Below are positions 8,248-58,677 of a DNA stretch of 64,000 nt, piece by piece; within the stretch, counting starts at the first letter, position 1; every line of letters begins with the position of its first letter. Below the pieces are notes generated by a model. That model was given only the letters and a program-made list of their open reading frames with translations. It searched no databases and was not told the origin of the DNA. The translations under genes were made by a program, and so were the position numbers. Source of the DNA: a virus (taxonomy: Duplodnaviria > Heunggongvirae > Uroviricota > Caudoviricetes); the IMG/VR virus record IMGVR_UViG_3300026302_000005, positions 209,301-273,300 of that record. One strand, written 5' to 3'.

Positions 8248-8759
8248 TCAATATTTTGGCCAAACTCACGGGGTATTCCGGACCCGATGCCATCAGTCGG
8301 CTACGTCGGCTGGCTGCACTGGCGGCTGCGGCGATGCTATTGCTGATCATCAGCACGTTTGTCGGTAGCGGGCTCCTTTATATGGAACTCATCTCCACCT
8401 ATACGGAAAACTACAACGTCCTGGCTGGTGCCGGTCTATCCGATCTGGTGGCATCCCCAACAGTCGTGAGCGACCGTATCCTGCTGTGGATCAGTCTCAT
8501 GCCGTTGTTGAACGCCGGTCTGGTGTTACCGACGTTCCTACTGGCGATCAAAGAGATCGTTGTCCTAAGCCGATCACACCAGCTTATAGACAAAGACGTT
8601 GCTGGGGAAGTTGATGTAGCCAAGGGGTGTGCTGATCAAGTGGCTCCGCAGCCCAGTGCTGTGGTCGATCAATCGATCCTGCTGACGAACCACTGCCAGG
8701 TATTCGTAGAACACACTGAGGCTGGCTCCGAACTGGTTCTCGTCCGTGTCCCCGCCTAG
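8244..8759 (+). CDS. Membrane protein with two TMDs; 3' end overlaps a convergent gene
   Basis: ATGA coupling; two hydrophobic segments. Confidence 0.55.
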   Translation: MINILAKLTGYSGPDAISRLRRLAALAAAAMLLLIISTFVGSGLLYMELISTYTENYNVLAGAGLSDLVASPTVVSDRILLWISLMPLLNAGLVLPTFLLAIKEIVVLSRSHQLIDKDVAGEVDVAKGCADQVAPQPSAVVDQSILLTNHCQVFVEHTEAGSELVLVRVPA

Positions 8760-9206
8760 ACCCTGGTTGACGAACGAAGTCTGAGACTTCGCCACCGGGT
8801 TCTGGTTCGCAAAGAAATCGTCGATGGCAACAATCGTAGGGGCTGTAATAGCTCCAGGAGTGAGCGTGGTGCGGATCGAGTATACGCAGACCAGTGCTTC
8901 CACCCCTGTCTCTTCCCAGGAGAGCCGCCACAGGCCCGTGTCGTTGTCTCGGGTCACCAGATAGCCCGCATTGACAAAGGCGTCCCTGTAGGCGATTTGG
9001 ACCGGTGTGAGGGTGCTACTGGTCATGGGATCACCCGTTGGGTTACCAATGATCCGTGCATCATACAGGGTGTTGAACCGCAGTCGCCCAGCCGCATTAC
9101 GGATGGTTCGTTCAGACAGATCAACTTCACGCTGTAGGTCCAGGTTTTCCTGGGTCGTGATGTTGTTGTTGGTGATCAGAAAGATCGTGGGTGCTGGCAA
9201 TACCAT
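8574..9206 (-). CDS. Late (probably virion) hypothetical protein, 210 aa
   Basis: AGGAG SD; TAAATA at 9224-9229 on the minus strand. Confidence 0.7.
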   Translation of the reverse strand: MVLPAPTIFLITNNNITTQENLDLQREVDLSERTIRNAAGRLRFNTLYDARIIGNPTGDPMTSSTLTPVQIAYRDAFVNAGYLVTRDNDTGLWRLSWEETGVEALVCVYSIRTTLTPGAITAPTIVAIDDFFANQNPVAKSQTSFVNQGLGGDTDENQFGASLSVFYEYLAVVRQQDRLIDHSTGLRSHLISTPLGYINFPSNVFVYKLV

Positions 9207-18054: not shown

Positions 18055-18225
18055 TGGCACGACAGGCGGGATTCGAACCCCCGGAAACGCCTCTAGGAAG
18101 GCTTGGCCGGTCTTTACGCTACCTTCCACCCAACTACTTGCTCAGACCCCTAGTAGGTCTACACGTCAAGCCCTGGCCCTCACGAGTCCCAGAAGTGGCT
18201 GCTCTATCCAACGAGCTACTGTCGA
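18055..18225 (-). ncRNA. tRNA-Arg-like RNA with an approx. 93-nt insertion in the anticodon arm
   Basis: Acceptor CGACAG/CTGTCG plus G-CCA, D-arm GCTC-GTTGGAT-AGAGC, T-loop TTCGAAT; 171 nt in total. Confidence 0.65.
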
Positions 18226-18423: not shown

Positions 18424-18506
18424 TGGAGAACCGGTGGGGAGTCGAACCCCTTGACCATGGATTAAAAGCCCATTGCCAGTCCACACCGACTTTCGTCTAC
18501 CGGTCC
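18424..18506 (-). tRNA. Atypical tRNA-Lys(UUU)
   Basis: Acceptor GGACCGG/CCGGTTC, T-loop TTCGACT, enlarged D region, 8-nt anticodon loop CTTTTAAT. Confidence 0.65.
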
Positions 18507-19042: not shown

Positions 19043-19121
19043 ATGTTGGTTTGGAACTGTGTTGAGGGTGTATCACACACGGGTTCCGGAGGCTTGTGGC
19101 TCTCCGGATAAGAGAGCAGCA

Positions 19122-19169
19122 TCAAGCCTTGGATGTAATCCGGCGCTTTCGTTTGTGCTGCATAGCCAT
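19122..19169 (-). CDS. Leader peptide MAMQHKRKRRITSKA of the Arg/Lys/Ile tRNA operon
   Basis: AAGGA SD 8 nt upstream; codon run AAA CGA AAG CGC CGG ATT. Confidence 0.75.
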   Translation of the reverse strand: MAMQHKRKRRITSKA

Positions 19170-19213
19170 GGTGATGGTCCTTCGGTTGACGGGTGATTCC
19201 GTCCTTGCAACTG

Positions 19214-19242
19214 TATTTAGCGTAGACTGCTCGATCTGTCAA
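19214..19242 (-). promoter_or_regulatory. Promoter of the Arg/Lys/Ile tRNA operon
   Basis: TTGACA-N17-TAAATA. Confidence 0.8.
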
Positions 19243-45800: not shown

Positions 45801-45887
45801 TGGCAAGGGTGACAGGATTCGAACCTGCTTAACCTCACGGTCCCAGTTTTGGAGACTGGCCCAACCCTCCCGCGTTGGCGCACCCCT
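45801..45887 (-). tRNA. Atypical tRNA-Trp(CCA) with long variable arm
   Basis: A1-U72, G73, loop CT-CCA-AA, 5-bp D-stem, variable hairpin GACC-GTGA-GGTT; 87 nt. Confidence 0.7.
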
Positions 45888-46643: not shown

Positions 46644-46760
46644 AAACATGTTCATCAAGACCATCCCATTGTCAGAGGGAGGTAGGTGACGGGCAAGTGA
46701 ATGGCGTTGGGGTTTCACTGTGTGCAATACAATAACCCAGTGCCTTCGGCCCGTCTCGAA
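46644..46760 (-). ncRNA. Structured leader or ncRNA (element B) between promoter and tRNA-Asp pair
   Basis: GACGGGC/GCCCGTC helix; motif shared with element A. Confidence 0.5.
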
Positions 46761-46762
46761 TG

Positions 46763-46791
46763 TATTTAGGGCATCGTTTGTGATTCGTCAA
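46763..46791 (-). promoter_or_regulatory. Promoter of the Asp tRNA unit
   Basis: TTGACG-N17-TAAATA. Confidence 0.75.
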
Positions 46792-52344: not shown

Positions 52345-52582
52345 TCTGTAGGTCCATCACGCCGATCTGAACAGCGATATGCTGAGCGATCTCTGCATTA
52401 TCGTAGTCACCATCGCTGGAAAAGAAATCGGCCTGCTCCAGAAGCCAGGACTGCATCTCTTCCACCGTTTGAGGCAACACAACCGGGGTCACGTCATCCA
52501 TTGTATCATCCTCCAGATCAGGCTCGATACCCCTGCCGTGAAACACGGCGGCACACAGATCGATAAAGAAATCGATAATCAC
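52325..52582 (-). CDS. Acidic hypothetical protein
   Basis: Coupled ORF. Confidence 0.6.
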   Translation of the reverse strand: MIIDFFIDLCAAVFHGRGIEPDLEDDTMDDVTPVVLPQTVEEMQSWLLEQADFFSSDGDYDNAEIAQHIAVQIGVMDLQIDRSPE

Positions 52583-52902
52583 GACGACACCCGGTTTACA
52601 GCATACCGAGCCAGGTCTTCCGTAACCATCTCGGTAACCCTGGACAAGATCGCCGGATCAAGATCGCCTCGGGGAATATACCCGGGTGACGACATGCGGA
52701 CGTATTCGGCCAGTGCTGCAAGCTCTGTGGTATCTATTCCGGGATTTGTGGTTTTCATCTTGGAGACGAACCGGGCACCGTTTTCTGCGATCACCCGCCA
52801 CATCATATCCCGGTTCACCGACTGCCCCACCCGTAGGCCGAGCCGAGCCATCACCTCGGGAAAAGATTCCACGGATGATCCGTTGTGCATGACATATGCC
52901 AT
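52579..52902 (-). CDS. Hypothetical protein, 107 aa
   Basis: TAATG coupling. Confidence 0.7.
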   Translation of the reverse strand: MAYVMHNGSSVESFPEVMARLGLRVGQSVNRDMMWRVIAENGARFVSKMKTTNPGIDTTELAALAEYVRMSSPGYIPRGDLDPAILSRVTEMVTEDLARYAVNRVSS

Positions 52903-53327
52903 TATGCCACCTCTGCGGCTTTCGGAAACAACGTGGCCTGCCCCTGCTCGACCTGACGAATCGCTTCCACGATGTTTGCCAGTGCCCGCAGGGTGCCTTG
53001 ATCGGCAAGTGCCCGCATCGGATTGGTCGAGGCCGATGTTGACGTGGCCTTGTTCATCAATTGCTGGGTGGCATGATCCCGCAGTCCATCGATCAGATCA
53101 TTCTGGGACAGCGGCGGTGCAGTCTCCATACGCTTCACCAGGCTCTCGTATTCCATCCCCTCGGCTGCGAGGCGGGAGATGTCAGCGGCGTCCCAGTTGA
53201 ACCGGGATTCGAAGCCAACAATGGAGGTTTCCGCCACCAGCTTTTGGGTGAACCCATGCAGCGTTGCCCGAACGTCCATCAACGAGGTCTTGGCCCAGTC
53301 CAGCAGATTGTCACGAACGAAGATCAT
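52902..53327 (-). CDS. Early hypothetical protein, 141 aa
   Basis: GGGAG SD; early promoter upstream. Confidence 0.75.
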   Translation of the reverse strand: MIFVRDNLLDWAKTSLMDVRATLHGFTQKLVAETSIVGFESRFNWDAADISRLAAEGMEYESLVKRMETAPPLSQNDLIDGLRDHATQQLMNKATSTSASTNPMRALADQGTLRALANIVEAIRQVEQGQATLFPKAAEVA

Positions 53328-53356
53328 CTTGTTGCTCCCGAGTTGCGTTACACATG

Positions 53357-53385
53357 CATCTATCAGGATTGGGGCAATTCGTCAA
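53357..53385 (-). promoter_or_regulatory. Early promoter
   Basis: TTGACG-N17-TAGATG. Confidence 0.65.
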
Positions 53386-53395
53386 GTCTTATATT

Positions 53396-53471
53396 TGGCT
53401 GGAGACCCCGGCTTCGAACCAGGCCCTTCCTGCTTCAAAGGCAGGTGCTCTACCAACTAAGCTAGTCTCCA
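53396..53471 (-). tRNA. tRNA-Gln(UUG)
   Basis: U1-A72, G73, loop CT-TTG-AA, CCA. Confidence 0.9.
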
Positions 53472-53481
53472 ACAGGTAGAT

Positions 53482-53556
53482 TGGCTGGGGCGGTAGGATT
53501 CGAACCCACGTATGTCGGAATCAAAGTCCGATGCCTTACCACTTGGCGACACCCCA
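53482..53556 (-). tRNA. tRNA-Gln(UUG), different body
   Basis: TGGGGTG.., loop CT-TTG-AT, G73, CCA. Confidence 0.95.
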
Positions 53557-53568
53557 ACGGTGTTGTTT

Positions 53569-53644
53569 TGGCTGGAAGTCCAGGCATCGAACCTGGGCCC
53601 TCGACATTCAGAGTGTCGCGCTCTACCAACTAAGCTAACTTCCA
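53569..53644 (-). tRNA. tRNA-Gln(CUG)
   Basis: U1-A72, loop CT-CTG-AA, G73, CCA. Confidence 0.92.
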
Positions 53645-53647
53645 AGA

Positions 53648-53675
53648 AACGAAAAAGCCGCCCCGGGGGACGGCT
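53648..53675 (-). terminator. Intrinsic (attenuator) terminator upstream of the tRNA-Gln genes
   Basis: AGCCGTCC-cccg-GGGCGGCT followed by TTTTCGTTT. Confidence 0.85.
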
Positions 53676-53703
53676 GTGAGGGATCGATCAGATAAGCCTT
53701 TGC

Positions 53704-53745
53704 TTAACCGCCGTATCCCTCACGATGTTGTTGCTGCTTGCGCAT
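53704..53745 (-). CDS. Attenuator leader peptide MRKQQQHREGYGG
   Basis: AGGGA SD 8 nt upstream; CAG CAA CAA; overlaps alternative helices. Confidence 0.85.
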   Translation of the reverse strand: MRKQQQHREGYGG

Positions 53746-53785
53746 GATCGAATTCCCTATGAGCGTGATTCGCTCTGTCACAACC

Positions 53786-53814
53786 TATTTAGTCCAAGTC
53801 CTCTGATTTGTCAA
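53786..53814 (-). promoter_or_regulatory. Promoter of the tRNA-Gln operon
   Basis: TTGACA-N17-TAAATA. Confidence 0.8.
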
Positions 53815-53983
53815 CCTCTATCGAGAAGAGTTTTTTGAACGTCGCCGCAAACAGGCCGAGACCGATAACATGGCTGACGAATGACACTCCGTATCCAACC
53901 ATCGTGGTTGAATACCCCAGCACAAATGTCGGGACACCCAGTCCCAGTAATGCTGCAAGTGCATAAGATATAGTCGAGATCAT
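53789..53983 (-). CDS. Small membrane protein, 64 aa
   Basis: Two hydrophobic segments; GAGGA SD. Confidence 0.65.
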   Translation of the reverse strand: MISTISYALAALLGLGVPTFVLGYSTTMVGYGVSFVSHVIGLGLFAATFKKLFSIEVDKSEDLD

Positions 53984-54133
53984 GTGTTTTTTCCTCACTG
54001 ACATGTCTTTTTGTATAAGTATTTGGGGGATATCAGTATGACACATGCATCCTACTAGATGATGTGTTGAGCAAATTTTCATTATTTTTCAGGGTCTTGA
54101 CGAATCAATACCTTATCGGAGTTGATTCGCCCG

Positions 54134-54808
54134 TTAGTGCTGCGATACCCATTCCCGCAGGGCCGAATCCAGGCTATCCTGGTGGTGCTGCTGAGCCTGC
54201 TCCAGTGTATCGAACGGAGGCACACCCGCTTCCCAGGCGATATACTTCCCATCCTTGGACAGGTGGACCTCGTAATCCCAGAACGGACCTTCGGCTACCC
54301 AGATAAAGGGGGCAAAGTCAACAGTGGACAGGCTTTTGACCTTCCAGTCCAGCTTCTGAAATTCAATCGGTGCGGTAGGTGTTTTCGCCGCACACTGCTT
54401 GCTATAGGCAGCAGCAAATGCACTGGCCATCGCCAACCGGTGAGCCCGAACTGCTCGCTCGTTCATCTTGAGCATCGCGGTTAGTTCGATCCATTCAACC
54501 CTCTGGATCAGGTCACTCACCGTATTTGGAATCACCATTCTGATAAACCGCCATACCCCCCGATTCCAGGAGTTCTTGTATTTCCGAACTGCCAGGTCAT
54601 AGCAGTCCGCATGAACTTGCTGGTGCCGCCGTATGATGGCATCAGGTCCTGCGGTGCGAAGTGCGTATTCGCCAAAATAGTCACCCGTCAACAGGGCTCG
54701 GGCAAGGGTGGGCCAACTGAAATCATCGACCATGTGGAGGGCCACCTCTTCGGTGATCGATACCCCGGTCGGAAAGATGTCAAGAAACTCTTCGGTCGTG
54801 TATGTCAT
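54134..54808 (-). CDS. Hypothetical protein (start MTYTTEE)
   Basis: AGGAG SD. Confidence 0.7.
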   Translation of the reverse strand: MTYTTEEFLDIFPTGVSITEEVALHMVDDFSWPTLARALLTGDYFGEYALRTAGPDAIIRRHQQVHADCYDLAVRKYKNSWNRGVWRFIRMVIPNTVSDLIQRVEWIELTAMLKMNERAVRAHRLAMASAFAAAYSKQCAAKTPTAPIEFQKLDWKVKSLSTVDFAPFIWVAEGPFWDYEVHLSKDGKYIAWEAGVPPFDTLEQAQQHHQDSLDSALREWVSQH

Positions 54809-55125
54809 TTCTGTGCTCTCCTGGCTTTCTCTTCTTCCCACCACACCATGAGCTTGGTCACCCGGTCGGCCTGTTCAGCCATGAATTGGGCTTTCCAGGC
54901 TTGCCATTCTGGTGTTGCTCGTATTGCGGCCCGCCCTGGCTCCCCATCGATCCATTCTTGACGACGACGCTCGGCCTCTACGATGGAAGCCAAACCAGGA
55001 TTGTCCTTGTCACCGGTTAGAATGTGTCTGATCTCTGAGATACGAGCCCGATGGACTCGTATCTCAGCCTCAAGCTGTTTCTGTTCAGCTTGCAGTTCGA
55101 TCAGGCGCTGCTGGTCAGGCTGCAC
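54805..55125 (-). CDS. Coiled-coil hypothetical protein
   Basis: Coupled ORF. Confidence 0.65.
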   Translation of the reverse strand: MQPDQQRLIELQAEQKQLEAEIRVHRARISEIRHILTGDKDNPGLASIVEAERRRQEWIDGEPGRAAIRATPEWQAWKAQFMAEQADRVTKLMVWWEEEKARRAQK

Positions 55126-58523: not shown

Positions 58524-58528
58524 GGAAG

Positions 58529-58615
58529 TTACTTCGCGGCTATCGCGGCATCAAGCTCGGCCAGCACAGCAGCCAGCGGGCGAACCACGACGATCTTGGT
58601 GTCTTTGCGAGCCAT
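58529..58615 (-). CDS. 28-aa leader ORF with a single ATA codon, ending 5 nt before tRNA(CAU)
   Basis: AAGGA SD; MARKDTKIVVVRPLAAVLAELDAAIAAK. Confidence 0.65.
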   Translation of the reverse strand: MARKDTKIVVVRPLAAVLAELDAAIAAK

Positions 58616-58648
58616 GATGGTGTTCCTTTGCGCTTCGTTCACTTGACC

Positions 58649-58677
58649 TATGTATCAGCTTCAAACTGATTCGTCAA
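58649..58677 (-). promoter_or_regulatory. Early promoter
   Basis: TTGACG-N17-TACATA. Confidence 0.7.

Follow-up and report, generated by a model that had tools for sequence, protein, structure and literature searches.

A putative leader-peptide attenuator ahead of the tRNA-Gln genes of a giant phage, and codon-matched leaders in three of its other tRNA units

Introduction

What could be the role of a strong intrinsic terminator that lies one nucleotide (nt) in front of a set of transfer RNA (tRNA) genes furnished with a promoter of their own? This question is raised by a locus on the minus strand of a 64,000-nt stretch of DNA (the window; positions 209,301 to 273,300 of the IMG/VR virus record IMGVR_UViG_3300026302_000005, a member of the Caudoviricetes). 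Here, three tRNA-Gln genes follow a promoter, a Shine-Dalgarno (SD)-led open reading frame (ORF) of 13 codons with three adjacent glutamine codons, and two successive hairpins, the second of which is the terminator. A sequence-only reading of the locus had taken this arrangement for a complete attenuator of the trp style. The trp operon made leader-peptide attenuation a textbook mechanism; in a full-text literature search we found no description of leader-peptide attenuation controlling tRNA genes.

The source record is a phage genome of 375,937 base pairs (bp), with a G+C content of 53% and a completeness estimated by CheckV at 93%. ARAGORN detects 48 tRNA genes and one transfer-messenger RNA (tmRNA) gene in the whole record. 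The tRNA genes are mostly clustered by amino acid, with sets of three for Glu, Gln and Pro and of two for Asp, His, Asn and Tyr. We used comparative sequence analysis and RNA folding to investigate the Gln locus, and regard it as moderately probable that a ribosome-mediated leader-peptide transcription attenuator gates the three tRNA-Gln genes. This reading is favoured mainly because of a paralogous leader with swapped codons in front of the tRNA-Glu genes, the matching of leader codons to downstream tRNAs in four units, and a promoter class specific to tRNA units.

Results

The leader of the tRNA-Gln genes

The elements of the Gln unit, given in window coordinates and in the order of transcription, are as follows:

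53786..53814, minus strand: promoter, with TTGACA at 53814-53809, a 17-nt spacer and TAAATA at 53791-53786
53761..53775, minus strand: small 5' hairpin of the leader transcript (GAGCG-loop-CGCUC), present in all folds
53746..53758, minus strand: Shine-Dalgarno region AGGGAAUUCGAUC, with the SD AGGGA at 53758-53754, 8 nt ahead of the ATG at 53745
53704..53745, minus strand: leader ORF MRKQQQHREGYGG, 13 codons, with the stop codon TAA at 53706-53704
53736-53728, minus strand: regulatory codons CAG CAA CAA in the leader ORF
53676..53723, minus strand: protector hairpin, with a perfect 9-bp basal helix (53723-53715/53684-53676), inner pairs and an apical AAGC/GCUU hairpin
53710..53719, minus strand: 5' strand of the candidate antiterminator, GGGAUACGGC, pairing with 53674-53667 by 4+4 bp around a 2-nt bulge
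53645..53675, minus strand: intrinsic terminator, with a stem-loop at 53675-53656 (8 pairs, 6 of them G-C, and a 4-nt loop) and the U-rich tail TTTTCGTTTCT at 53655-53645
53569..53644, minus strand: tRNA-Gln, anticodon CUG (ARAGORN and Rfam, 64 bits)
53482..53556, minus strand: tRNA-Gln, anticodon UUG (ARAGORN and Rfam, 63 bits)
53396..53471, minus strand: tRNA-Gln, anticodon UUG (ARAGORN and Rfam, 58 bits)

The promoter, SD, ORF, protector, antiterminator candidate and terminator that the sequence-only reading had described are each found on the minus strand exactly where it had placed them. The predicted transcription start is near 53779. The 8-nt spacing between the SD and the start codon is the modal one among the genes of this phage, and only about 10% of all ATGs in the genome have an SD at such a spacing. 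The final seven codons of the leader, plus the first base of its stop codon, make up the 5' arm of the protector, and the remaining stop-codon bases lie in the apical hairpin. The protector duplex has a predicted energy of -20.6 kcal/mol, which places it in the top 0.13% of random windows. The terminator, whose tail ends one base ahead of the first tRNA (starting at 53644), was the best match in an independent terminator scan of positions 52500-55000, and no terminator is found downstream of the third tRNA-Gln. In the minimum-energy fold of the leader the protector directly abuts the terminator (-57 kcal/mol, z = -4.7), and none of 200 shuffled sequences was as stable. The leader matches none of the Rfam leader families (Trp, His, Leu, Thr and Phe), either at the gathering score or at E values up to 10.

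A paralogous leader ahead of the tRNA-Glu genes

Outside the window, the phage genome carries a second unit of the same layout:

Genome 8648-8886, plus strand: tRNA-Glu unit, with promoter, tRNA-like element, leader ORF, protector, terminator and three tRNA-Glu genes

The Glu leader proper occupies genome positions 8766-8886, encodes the peptide MMNKCEEQRRGTE and precedes tRNA-Glu genes with the anticodons UUC, CUC and UUC. It is identical to the Gln leader at 75 of about 115 positions (z = 8), a score attained by none of 2,000 random windows, and the likeness persists when the terminator is removed from the comparison. The order of parts is that of the Gln unit: the same SD, a 13-codon ORF with its end inside a hairpin's 5' arm, and a terminator (9 pairs, 8855-8875) that reaches the first tRNA. 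The Glu protector is an equivalent helix that has a GGGA/UCCC core in common with its Gln counterpart. The Glu leader is, on these sequence comparisons, a true paralog of the Gln leader; no third paralog is present in the genome.

The alignment of the two leaders sets CAG CAA CAA of the Gln leader over TGT GAA GAA of the Glu leader, so that two first-position changes track the identity of the downstream tRNAs. The gene upstream of the Glu unit is divergent. The Glu terminator therefore acts only on transcripts from the tRNA-type promoter and is not the terminator of an upstream gene. As a separate observation, the tRNA-like element that follows the promoter of the Glu unit (8693-8763) is degenerate, scoring 25 bits against the tRNA clan, and its 3' half is identical to the 3' half of the tRNA-Thr(UGU) of the window.

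Codon matching in four leaders

Four of the tRNA units with long leaders, including the Gln and Glu units, carry a small SD-led ORF with codons that match their own downstream tRNAs. The other two leaders are:

Window 19043-19242, minus strand: leader MAMQHKRKRRITSKA (KRKRRI), before tRNAs Arg UCG, Arg ACG, Lys CUU and two Ile GAU
Genome 284422-284630, minus strand: leader MKETTMLHHFYLNLTERAAV (LHHFYLNL), before tRNAs for Phe, Tyr (two), Asn (two) and His (two), with Leu tRNAs further on

The MAMQHKRKRRITSKA leader has a promoter, the SD AAGGA and the codons AAA CGA AAG CGC CGG ATT. It can form alternative hairpins and has no terminator with a U-tract, and the stretch ahead of its first tRNA is rich in C and poor in G. 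The MKETTMLHHFYLNLTERAAV ORF, which has a poor SD, ends in the 5' arm of a large hairpin, and only a weak, irregular hairpin precedes a run of T. The next three Leu tRNAs (anticodons CAA, GAG and CAG), which lie 0.5-2.5 kilobases (kb) beyond, correspond to its Leu codons TTG, CTC and CTG; Leu possibly counts as cognate here, and only if the transcription unit extends to those genes.

We assessed the runs of cognate codons against a null of the 4,997 small ATG-initiated ORFs of the genome. The resulting p values were 0.001 for QQQ of the Gln leader, 0.013 for EE..E of the Glu leader, 0.0008 for the Arg/Lys/Ile leader and 0.0046 for the Phe unit, the last being that of the HHFY run against the Phe/Tyr/Asn/His set with Leu excluded. 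Combined over the four leaders by Fisher's method, p = 1.2e-7. Furthermore, every leader peptide scores best against its own tRNA set. The sequence-only reading had also remarked that the numbers of CAG and CAA codons mirror those of the Gln genes for each anticodon. Such a correspondence recurs in the Glu unit (two GAA and one GAG codons vs two UUC genes and one CUC gene), but it is statistically not meaningful, since each leader has just three such codons, given the codon usage of the phage.

A promoter class of the tRNA units

The pattern TTGAC[AG]-N16-18-TA[ACT]A[AT]A, counted over the whole genome, defines a promoter class with 23 copies, against about one expected. Eighteen of the 23 are followed, 9-211 nt downstream, by a tRNA on the same strand, although just 1.3% of strand positions have a tRNA or the tmRNA within the next 250 nt. 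This class is thus nearly reserved for tRNA units, and the copy in the Gln unit can therefore be taken to serve the tRNA-Gln genes. In most tRNA units the distance from promoter to tRNA is 8-60 nt, long leaders being restricted to a few. Transcripts that start at the Gln promoter must cross a strong terminator placed 1 nt before the tRNA, and such a terminator is therefore sensible only if it is conditional.

The -35 box and spacer of the Gln unit match the sigma-70 consensus perfectly, and a scan with the sigma-70 consensus passes over this promoter because TAAATA has no conserved final T. Across the genome there are 19 copies of the sigma-70 consensus TATAAT against an expected 120, a six-fold depletion, and CTAAATAC is 4-fold over-represented; the -10-like box may therefore be recognized by a polymerase or sigma factor adapted to the phage. 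The TAA within the TAAATA box of the Gln unit doubles as the stop codon of an upstream 64-codon ORF, an arrangement that is frequent genome-wide.

Ribosome-masking folds and the candidate antiterminator

To represent a ribosome on the leader, we masked a stretch that began 15 nt ahead of the first base of the A-site codon and extended 8-14 nt past it, and we folded the unmasked sequence. The readout was sequestration, that is, the frequency with which the 5' arm of the terminator pairs with upstream sequence before its 3' partner exists. In the Escherichia coli controls, sequestration rose from a baseline of 0.14 to 0.65-0.72 at the Trp codons of trpL, returning to 0.14 at the stop codon, and from a baseline of 0.25 to 0.74 across the His codons of hisL. 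With the phage Glu leader it rose from about 0.1 to about 0.6 when the A site was at GAA7/CAA8. With the Gln leader, nested folding gave a rise from 0.23 to 0.38-0.46 at the CAA codons, and the partner strand in this weak signal differs from the antiterminator of the sequence-only reading. That reading had a ribosome stalled on Gln codons 4-6 releasing the antiterminator; in the folds, masks at codon 5 and beyond open the protector hairpin, so that codons 5 and 6 fit this proposal but codon 4 scarcely touches the protector. The claim of a complete trp-style switch fares in the same divided manner when the folds include the ribosome footprint: its parts are present, but a purely nested logic of three helices is unsupported.

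A fourth strand may have to be considered. The SD region (53758-53746) can pair with the 3' arm of the protector (53689-53679), and this 'anti-protector' pairing, at -13.4 to -16.3 kcal/mol, is in the top 0.3% of random windows. When the A site is at CAA6, the SD region is just out of the ribosome and the base of the protector is inside it. Capture of the protector 3' arm by the SD region would thus leave the antiterminator strand free. The SD-region pairing and the antiterminator together make a pseudoknot, and ordinary (nested) folding cannot represent both. With the pseudoknot allowed, sequestration in the Gln leader reaches about 0.7 with the A site at codons 6-8 and is 0.27-0.5 at the stop codon, depending on the footprint. 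The pseudoknot state is estimated at -36 kcal/mol, vs -26 to -31 kcal/mol for the nested folds, an estimate that takes no account of steric hindrance, of entropic costs or of the space filled by the stalled ribosome. At full length the pseudoknot state is within about 2 kcal/mol of the terminator state, and without a ribosome the protector prevails. A four-strand version of the switch would on these models yield a trp-like logic.

A model of the putative Gln attenuator

These elements can be put together in a model in which transcription would begin at the tRNA-type promoter, near 53779, and ribosomes would translate the 13-codon leader. By default, transcription would terminate at 53675-53645, so that a leader RNA of about 130 nt is released and the tRNAs are not made. 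When Gln-tRNA(Gln) is scarce, a ribosome would wait at the CAA codons 5-6, and its front edge would open the base of the protector. The exposed SD region could then capture the 3' arm of the protector, and the freed GGGAUACGGC, as the putative antiterminator, would pair with the 5' arm of the terminator before the 3' arm is synthesized, allowing RNA polymerase to read into the tRNA genes. RNase P would trim the leader from the tRNA transcript. Once tRNA-Gln has built up, ribosomes would reach the stop codon and cover the antiterminator strand, and termination would return. The expected outcome is homeostasis of tRNA supply, amino acid by amino acid, during infection.

Weighing the attenuator against other explanations

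Several results weigh against the attenuator reading. In nested folding of the whole leader, the Gln terminator forms at every ribosome position. At all positions and footprints tried, the best nested alternative beats the candidate antiterminator by at least 4.5 kcal/mol, and the latter is absent from every nested minimum-energy fold. Its pairing is the best complement to the 5' arm of the terminator within the leader, but the energy of -13.9 kcal/mol is reached in 11% of random leader-sized stretches of the genome (p = 0.11). The costs left out of the pseudoknot estimate belong on the same side, and so does the TAAATA box, which has no final T of a sigma-70 -10 box. The Arg/Lys/Ile and Phe-unit leaders are without a canonical terminator and may therefore act differently or not at all. 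No compensatory changes are seen between the Gln and Glu paralogs, whose cross-pairings equal the cognate ones in strength, and consequently paralog covariation is uninformative.

The search for relatives adds to this side as well. The flanking proteins, of 236, 141 and 693 amino acids, have no relatives in the viral contigs or in a set of 5.8 billion proteins, and exact and degenerate DNA patterns for the leader, terminator and tRNA found no match in viral or metagenome contigs. Two other metagenome contigs with the neighbouring gene, from JGI sample 3300003770 and run SRR5423074, are 100% identical over the 6.7-kb locus, including the leader and the tRNA-Gln genes, and so offer no variation to analyse. 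Further afield, the IMG/VR matches to the DNA polymerase B, at 24-27% identity, have few or no tRNAs. The closest cultured phages by this polymerase (31-34% identity) are jumbo phages of 340-470 kb that infect Xanthomonas, Ralstonia, Salicola and Sinorhizobium. Of these, the Sinorhizobium phage Phosso has mixed tRNA arrays with no terminator directly ahead of them. The Ralstonia phage RsoM2USA (MG752970.1, ~87180-87440, minus strand) has one Asn/Gln-rich ORF of 37 codons, starting MFNAFNNNQRQNQ, behind which a canonical terminator lies, about 10 nt ahead of a cluster of tRNA genes in the order Met-Ile-Asn-Asn-Gln-Lys. For the RsoM2USA leader the folds predict no switch that depends on the ribosome, and this case is therefore a lead only; as a cultured jumbo phage, RsoM2USA is nevertheless a possible experimental entry point.

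The leader could instead be an independent small gene that makes an RNA of about 130 nt, a 13-residue peptide or both. Constitutive leakage past the terminator, or transcripts from further upstream, would then supply the tRNAs, and it would be incidental that the ORF has Gln codons. Such a gene would account for a terminator that is predicted at all ribosome positions in nested folds and for an antiterminator complementarity that is within chance, and the ORF and terminator of RsoM2USA may themselves be an ordinary small gene. A trans-acting product would also have parallels, since in Sinorhizobium terminated attenuator RNAs and leader peptides are reported to be capable of acting in trans (PMC6614838, PMC7298713). 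However, a small gene leaves unexplained why four leaders spell out their own downstream tRNAs (the combined probability given above) and why the Gln and Glu paralogs differ in exactly two adjacent regulatory codons. It would also deprive the tRNA-Gln and tRNA-Glu clusters, alone among the tRNA clusters, of a usable tRNA-type promoter. We consider it unlikely. A further alternative grants that the leader is translated and couples translation to tRNA output by some other logic. Translation as such might report how many ribosomes are generally available or how far the infection has advanced, might set the processing or stability of the leader RNA, or might give protection from Rho. This could apply especially to the Arg/Lys/Ile and Phe units, as two of the four codon-matched leaders are without a canonical terminator and the stretch behind the Arg leader has much C and little G. 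In the Gln unit the switch is weak in nested models, and the pairing of the SD with the protector arm could shut off further initiation after the first ribosome has passed. Yet a general sensor of translation needs no cognate codons, and the codons track the tRNAs in all four leaders; we judge this alternative rather improbable.

Very little weight, finally, attaches to sensing by the RNA itself, in which CAG CAA CAA would pair with the anticodons of tRNA-Gln in the style of a T-box specifier, without any ribosome. The triplets are indeed complementary to the anticodons of the encoded tRNA-Gln genes, but neither the T-box (RF00230) nor any other Rfam riboswitch matches the leader at E values up to 10. 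Moreover, each of the four leaders has retained an SD at the modal spacing together with an ATG and a stop codon in frame, which would be needless in an RNA-only sensor.

Other features of the window and the genome

The coding content of the window includes the family B DNA polymerase, a helicase and radical SAM proteins. A motif, GATGCATGTGT, occurs about 30-40 nt 5' of two protein ORFs that flank the Gln unit, at window positions ~54035-54020 and ~53360-53345 (minus strand). The ORFs behind it are of 64 codons (53982-53789) and 141 codons (53327-52902), and the motif may represent a second class of promoter or operator.

Two further tRNA units, Asp x2 (window 46644-46790, minus strand) and Ala/Val (genome 316782-316892, minus strand), have leaders with a common structured element of about 75 nt and no ORF. 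The element has an outer helix formed by GACGGGCC...CCCGTC, with nested helices. An Rfam match to a nematode sRNA family at 46686-46758 in the Asp leader is probably spurious. At window 58524-58677 (minus strand), 6 nt separate the end of an SD-led ORF of 28 codons from a downstream tRNA with the anticodon CAU; there is no terminator, and the single ATA codon of this ORF lies four codons ahead of its stop. The CAU tRNA has G1-C72, C4-G69 and C5-G68 pairs and may be a lysidine-type tRNA-Ile2.

Non-canonical tRNA-like genes were detected only by relaxed ARAGORN settings or weak Rfam matches on the minus strand of the window, at 45805-45887, 18055-18225 and 18427-18506. The types among them are a Trp(CCA)-like gene with a long extra arm between Pro tRNAs, an Arg(UCU)-like gene with a 79-nt insertion in the anticodon loop, and a Lys(UUU)-like or otherwise unusual tRNA in which the D region is enlarged. 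A tRNA with the anticodon CUA, of the amber suppressor type, is located at genome 301027-301103. The final ~65 bases of the record repeat the first ones, with an identical promoter-like match at 63 and 375873; this sequence repeat suggests a terminal repeat or circular permutation.

Discussion

Possible demand regulation of phage tRNAs and its implications

The four leaders lead us to a wider proposal, which we hold to be evenly poised between true and false. Giant phages may regulate their own tRNA supply, for single amino acids or small groups of them, by means of codon-matched attenuators that read the decoding speed of the host. Each attenuator would act as an inbuilt detector of tRNA shortage: once host tRNAs run low or are being degraded, as by anticodon nucleases, the corresponding phage tRNAs would be turned on. 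In the present phage, duplication would have given rise to the Gln and Glu sensors, with re-targeting by single-base changes in two codons.

If this is true, the tRNA sets of phages would be regulated by demand, going beyond constitutive patches for codon usage, and the ribosome itself would be the sensor. Phage tRNAs would also be directly linked to host defences that deplete tRNAs. The Gln/Glu pair would amount to a natural experiment, in which two point changes (CAA to GAA) accompany a change of tRNA identity, and leaders of this kind could provide synthetic biology with compact, amino acid-specific sensors of decoding speed.

Comparison with known systems

The pheU and pheV genes of E. coli resemble the phage units in being stand-alone tRNA genes with a strong promoter. 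We considered them as a precedent for an attenuator ahead of tRNA genes and rejected them, as their sequences show that the promoter directly abuts the tRNA and that there is neither a leader ORF nor a terminator. T-box riboswitches (RF00230) resemble the phage system in that genes for the supply of translation are tuned to one tRNA species by conditional termination. They differ in that T-boxes bind uncharged tRNA directly, without a ribosome, and the phage leader is devoid of T-box features.

Closer in mechanism to the proposed switch are the attenuators with leader peptides. The pheST attenuator of E. coli, with its pheM leader peptide, controls phenylalanyl-tRNA synthetase and senses a single charged tRNA species. 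It is comparable to the phage system as attenuation of a component of decoding supply, the regulated gene being a host synthetase gene in one case and phage tRNA genes in the other. The thrL and ilvL leaders are multivalent attenuators, with Thr/Ile and Ile/Leu/Val codons, respectively. In the same way, the phage KRKRRI and LHHFYLNL leaders mix codons that match mixed downstream products; in the phage, however, the products are the tRNAs for those very codons, and both mixed leaders are without a canonical terminator.

The E. coli trp attenuator (trpL, RF00513) and the Gln leader have in common an SD-led ORF close to the promoter, 13-14 codons long and with its regulatory codons side by side; a hairpin spanning the distal ORF and the stop codon; and an intrinsic terminator just upstream of the regulated genes. 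These genes encode biosynthetic enzymes in trp and tRNAs in the phage. The phage helices do not form the adjacent 1:2, 2:3, 3:4 chain of trp, since the candidate antiterminator joins the 5' arms of the protector and the terminator, and the phage antiterminator seems to require a fourth strand, the SD region. In classical attenuators the order of synthesis decides between states of nearly equal energy, and the gap of about 2 kcal/mol between the pseudoknot and terminator states of the Gln leader would likewise leave the decision to the order in which its strands are made.

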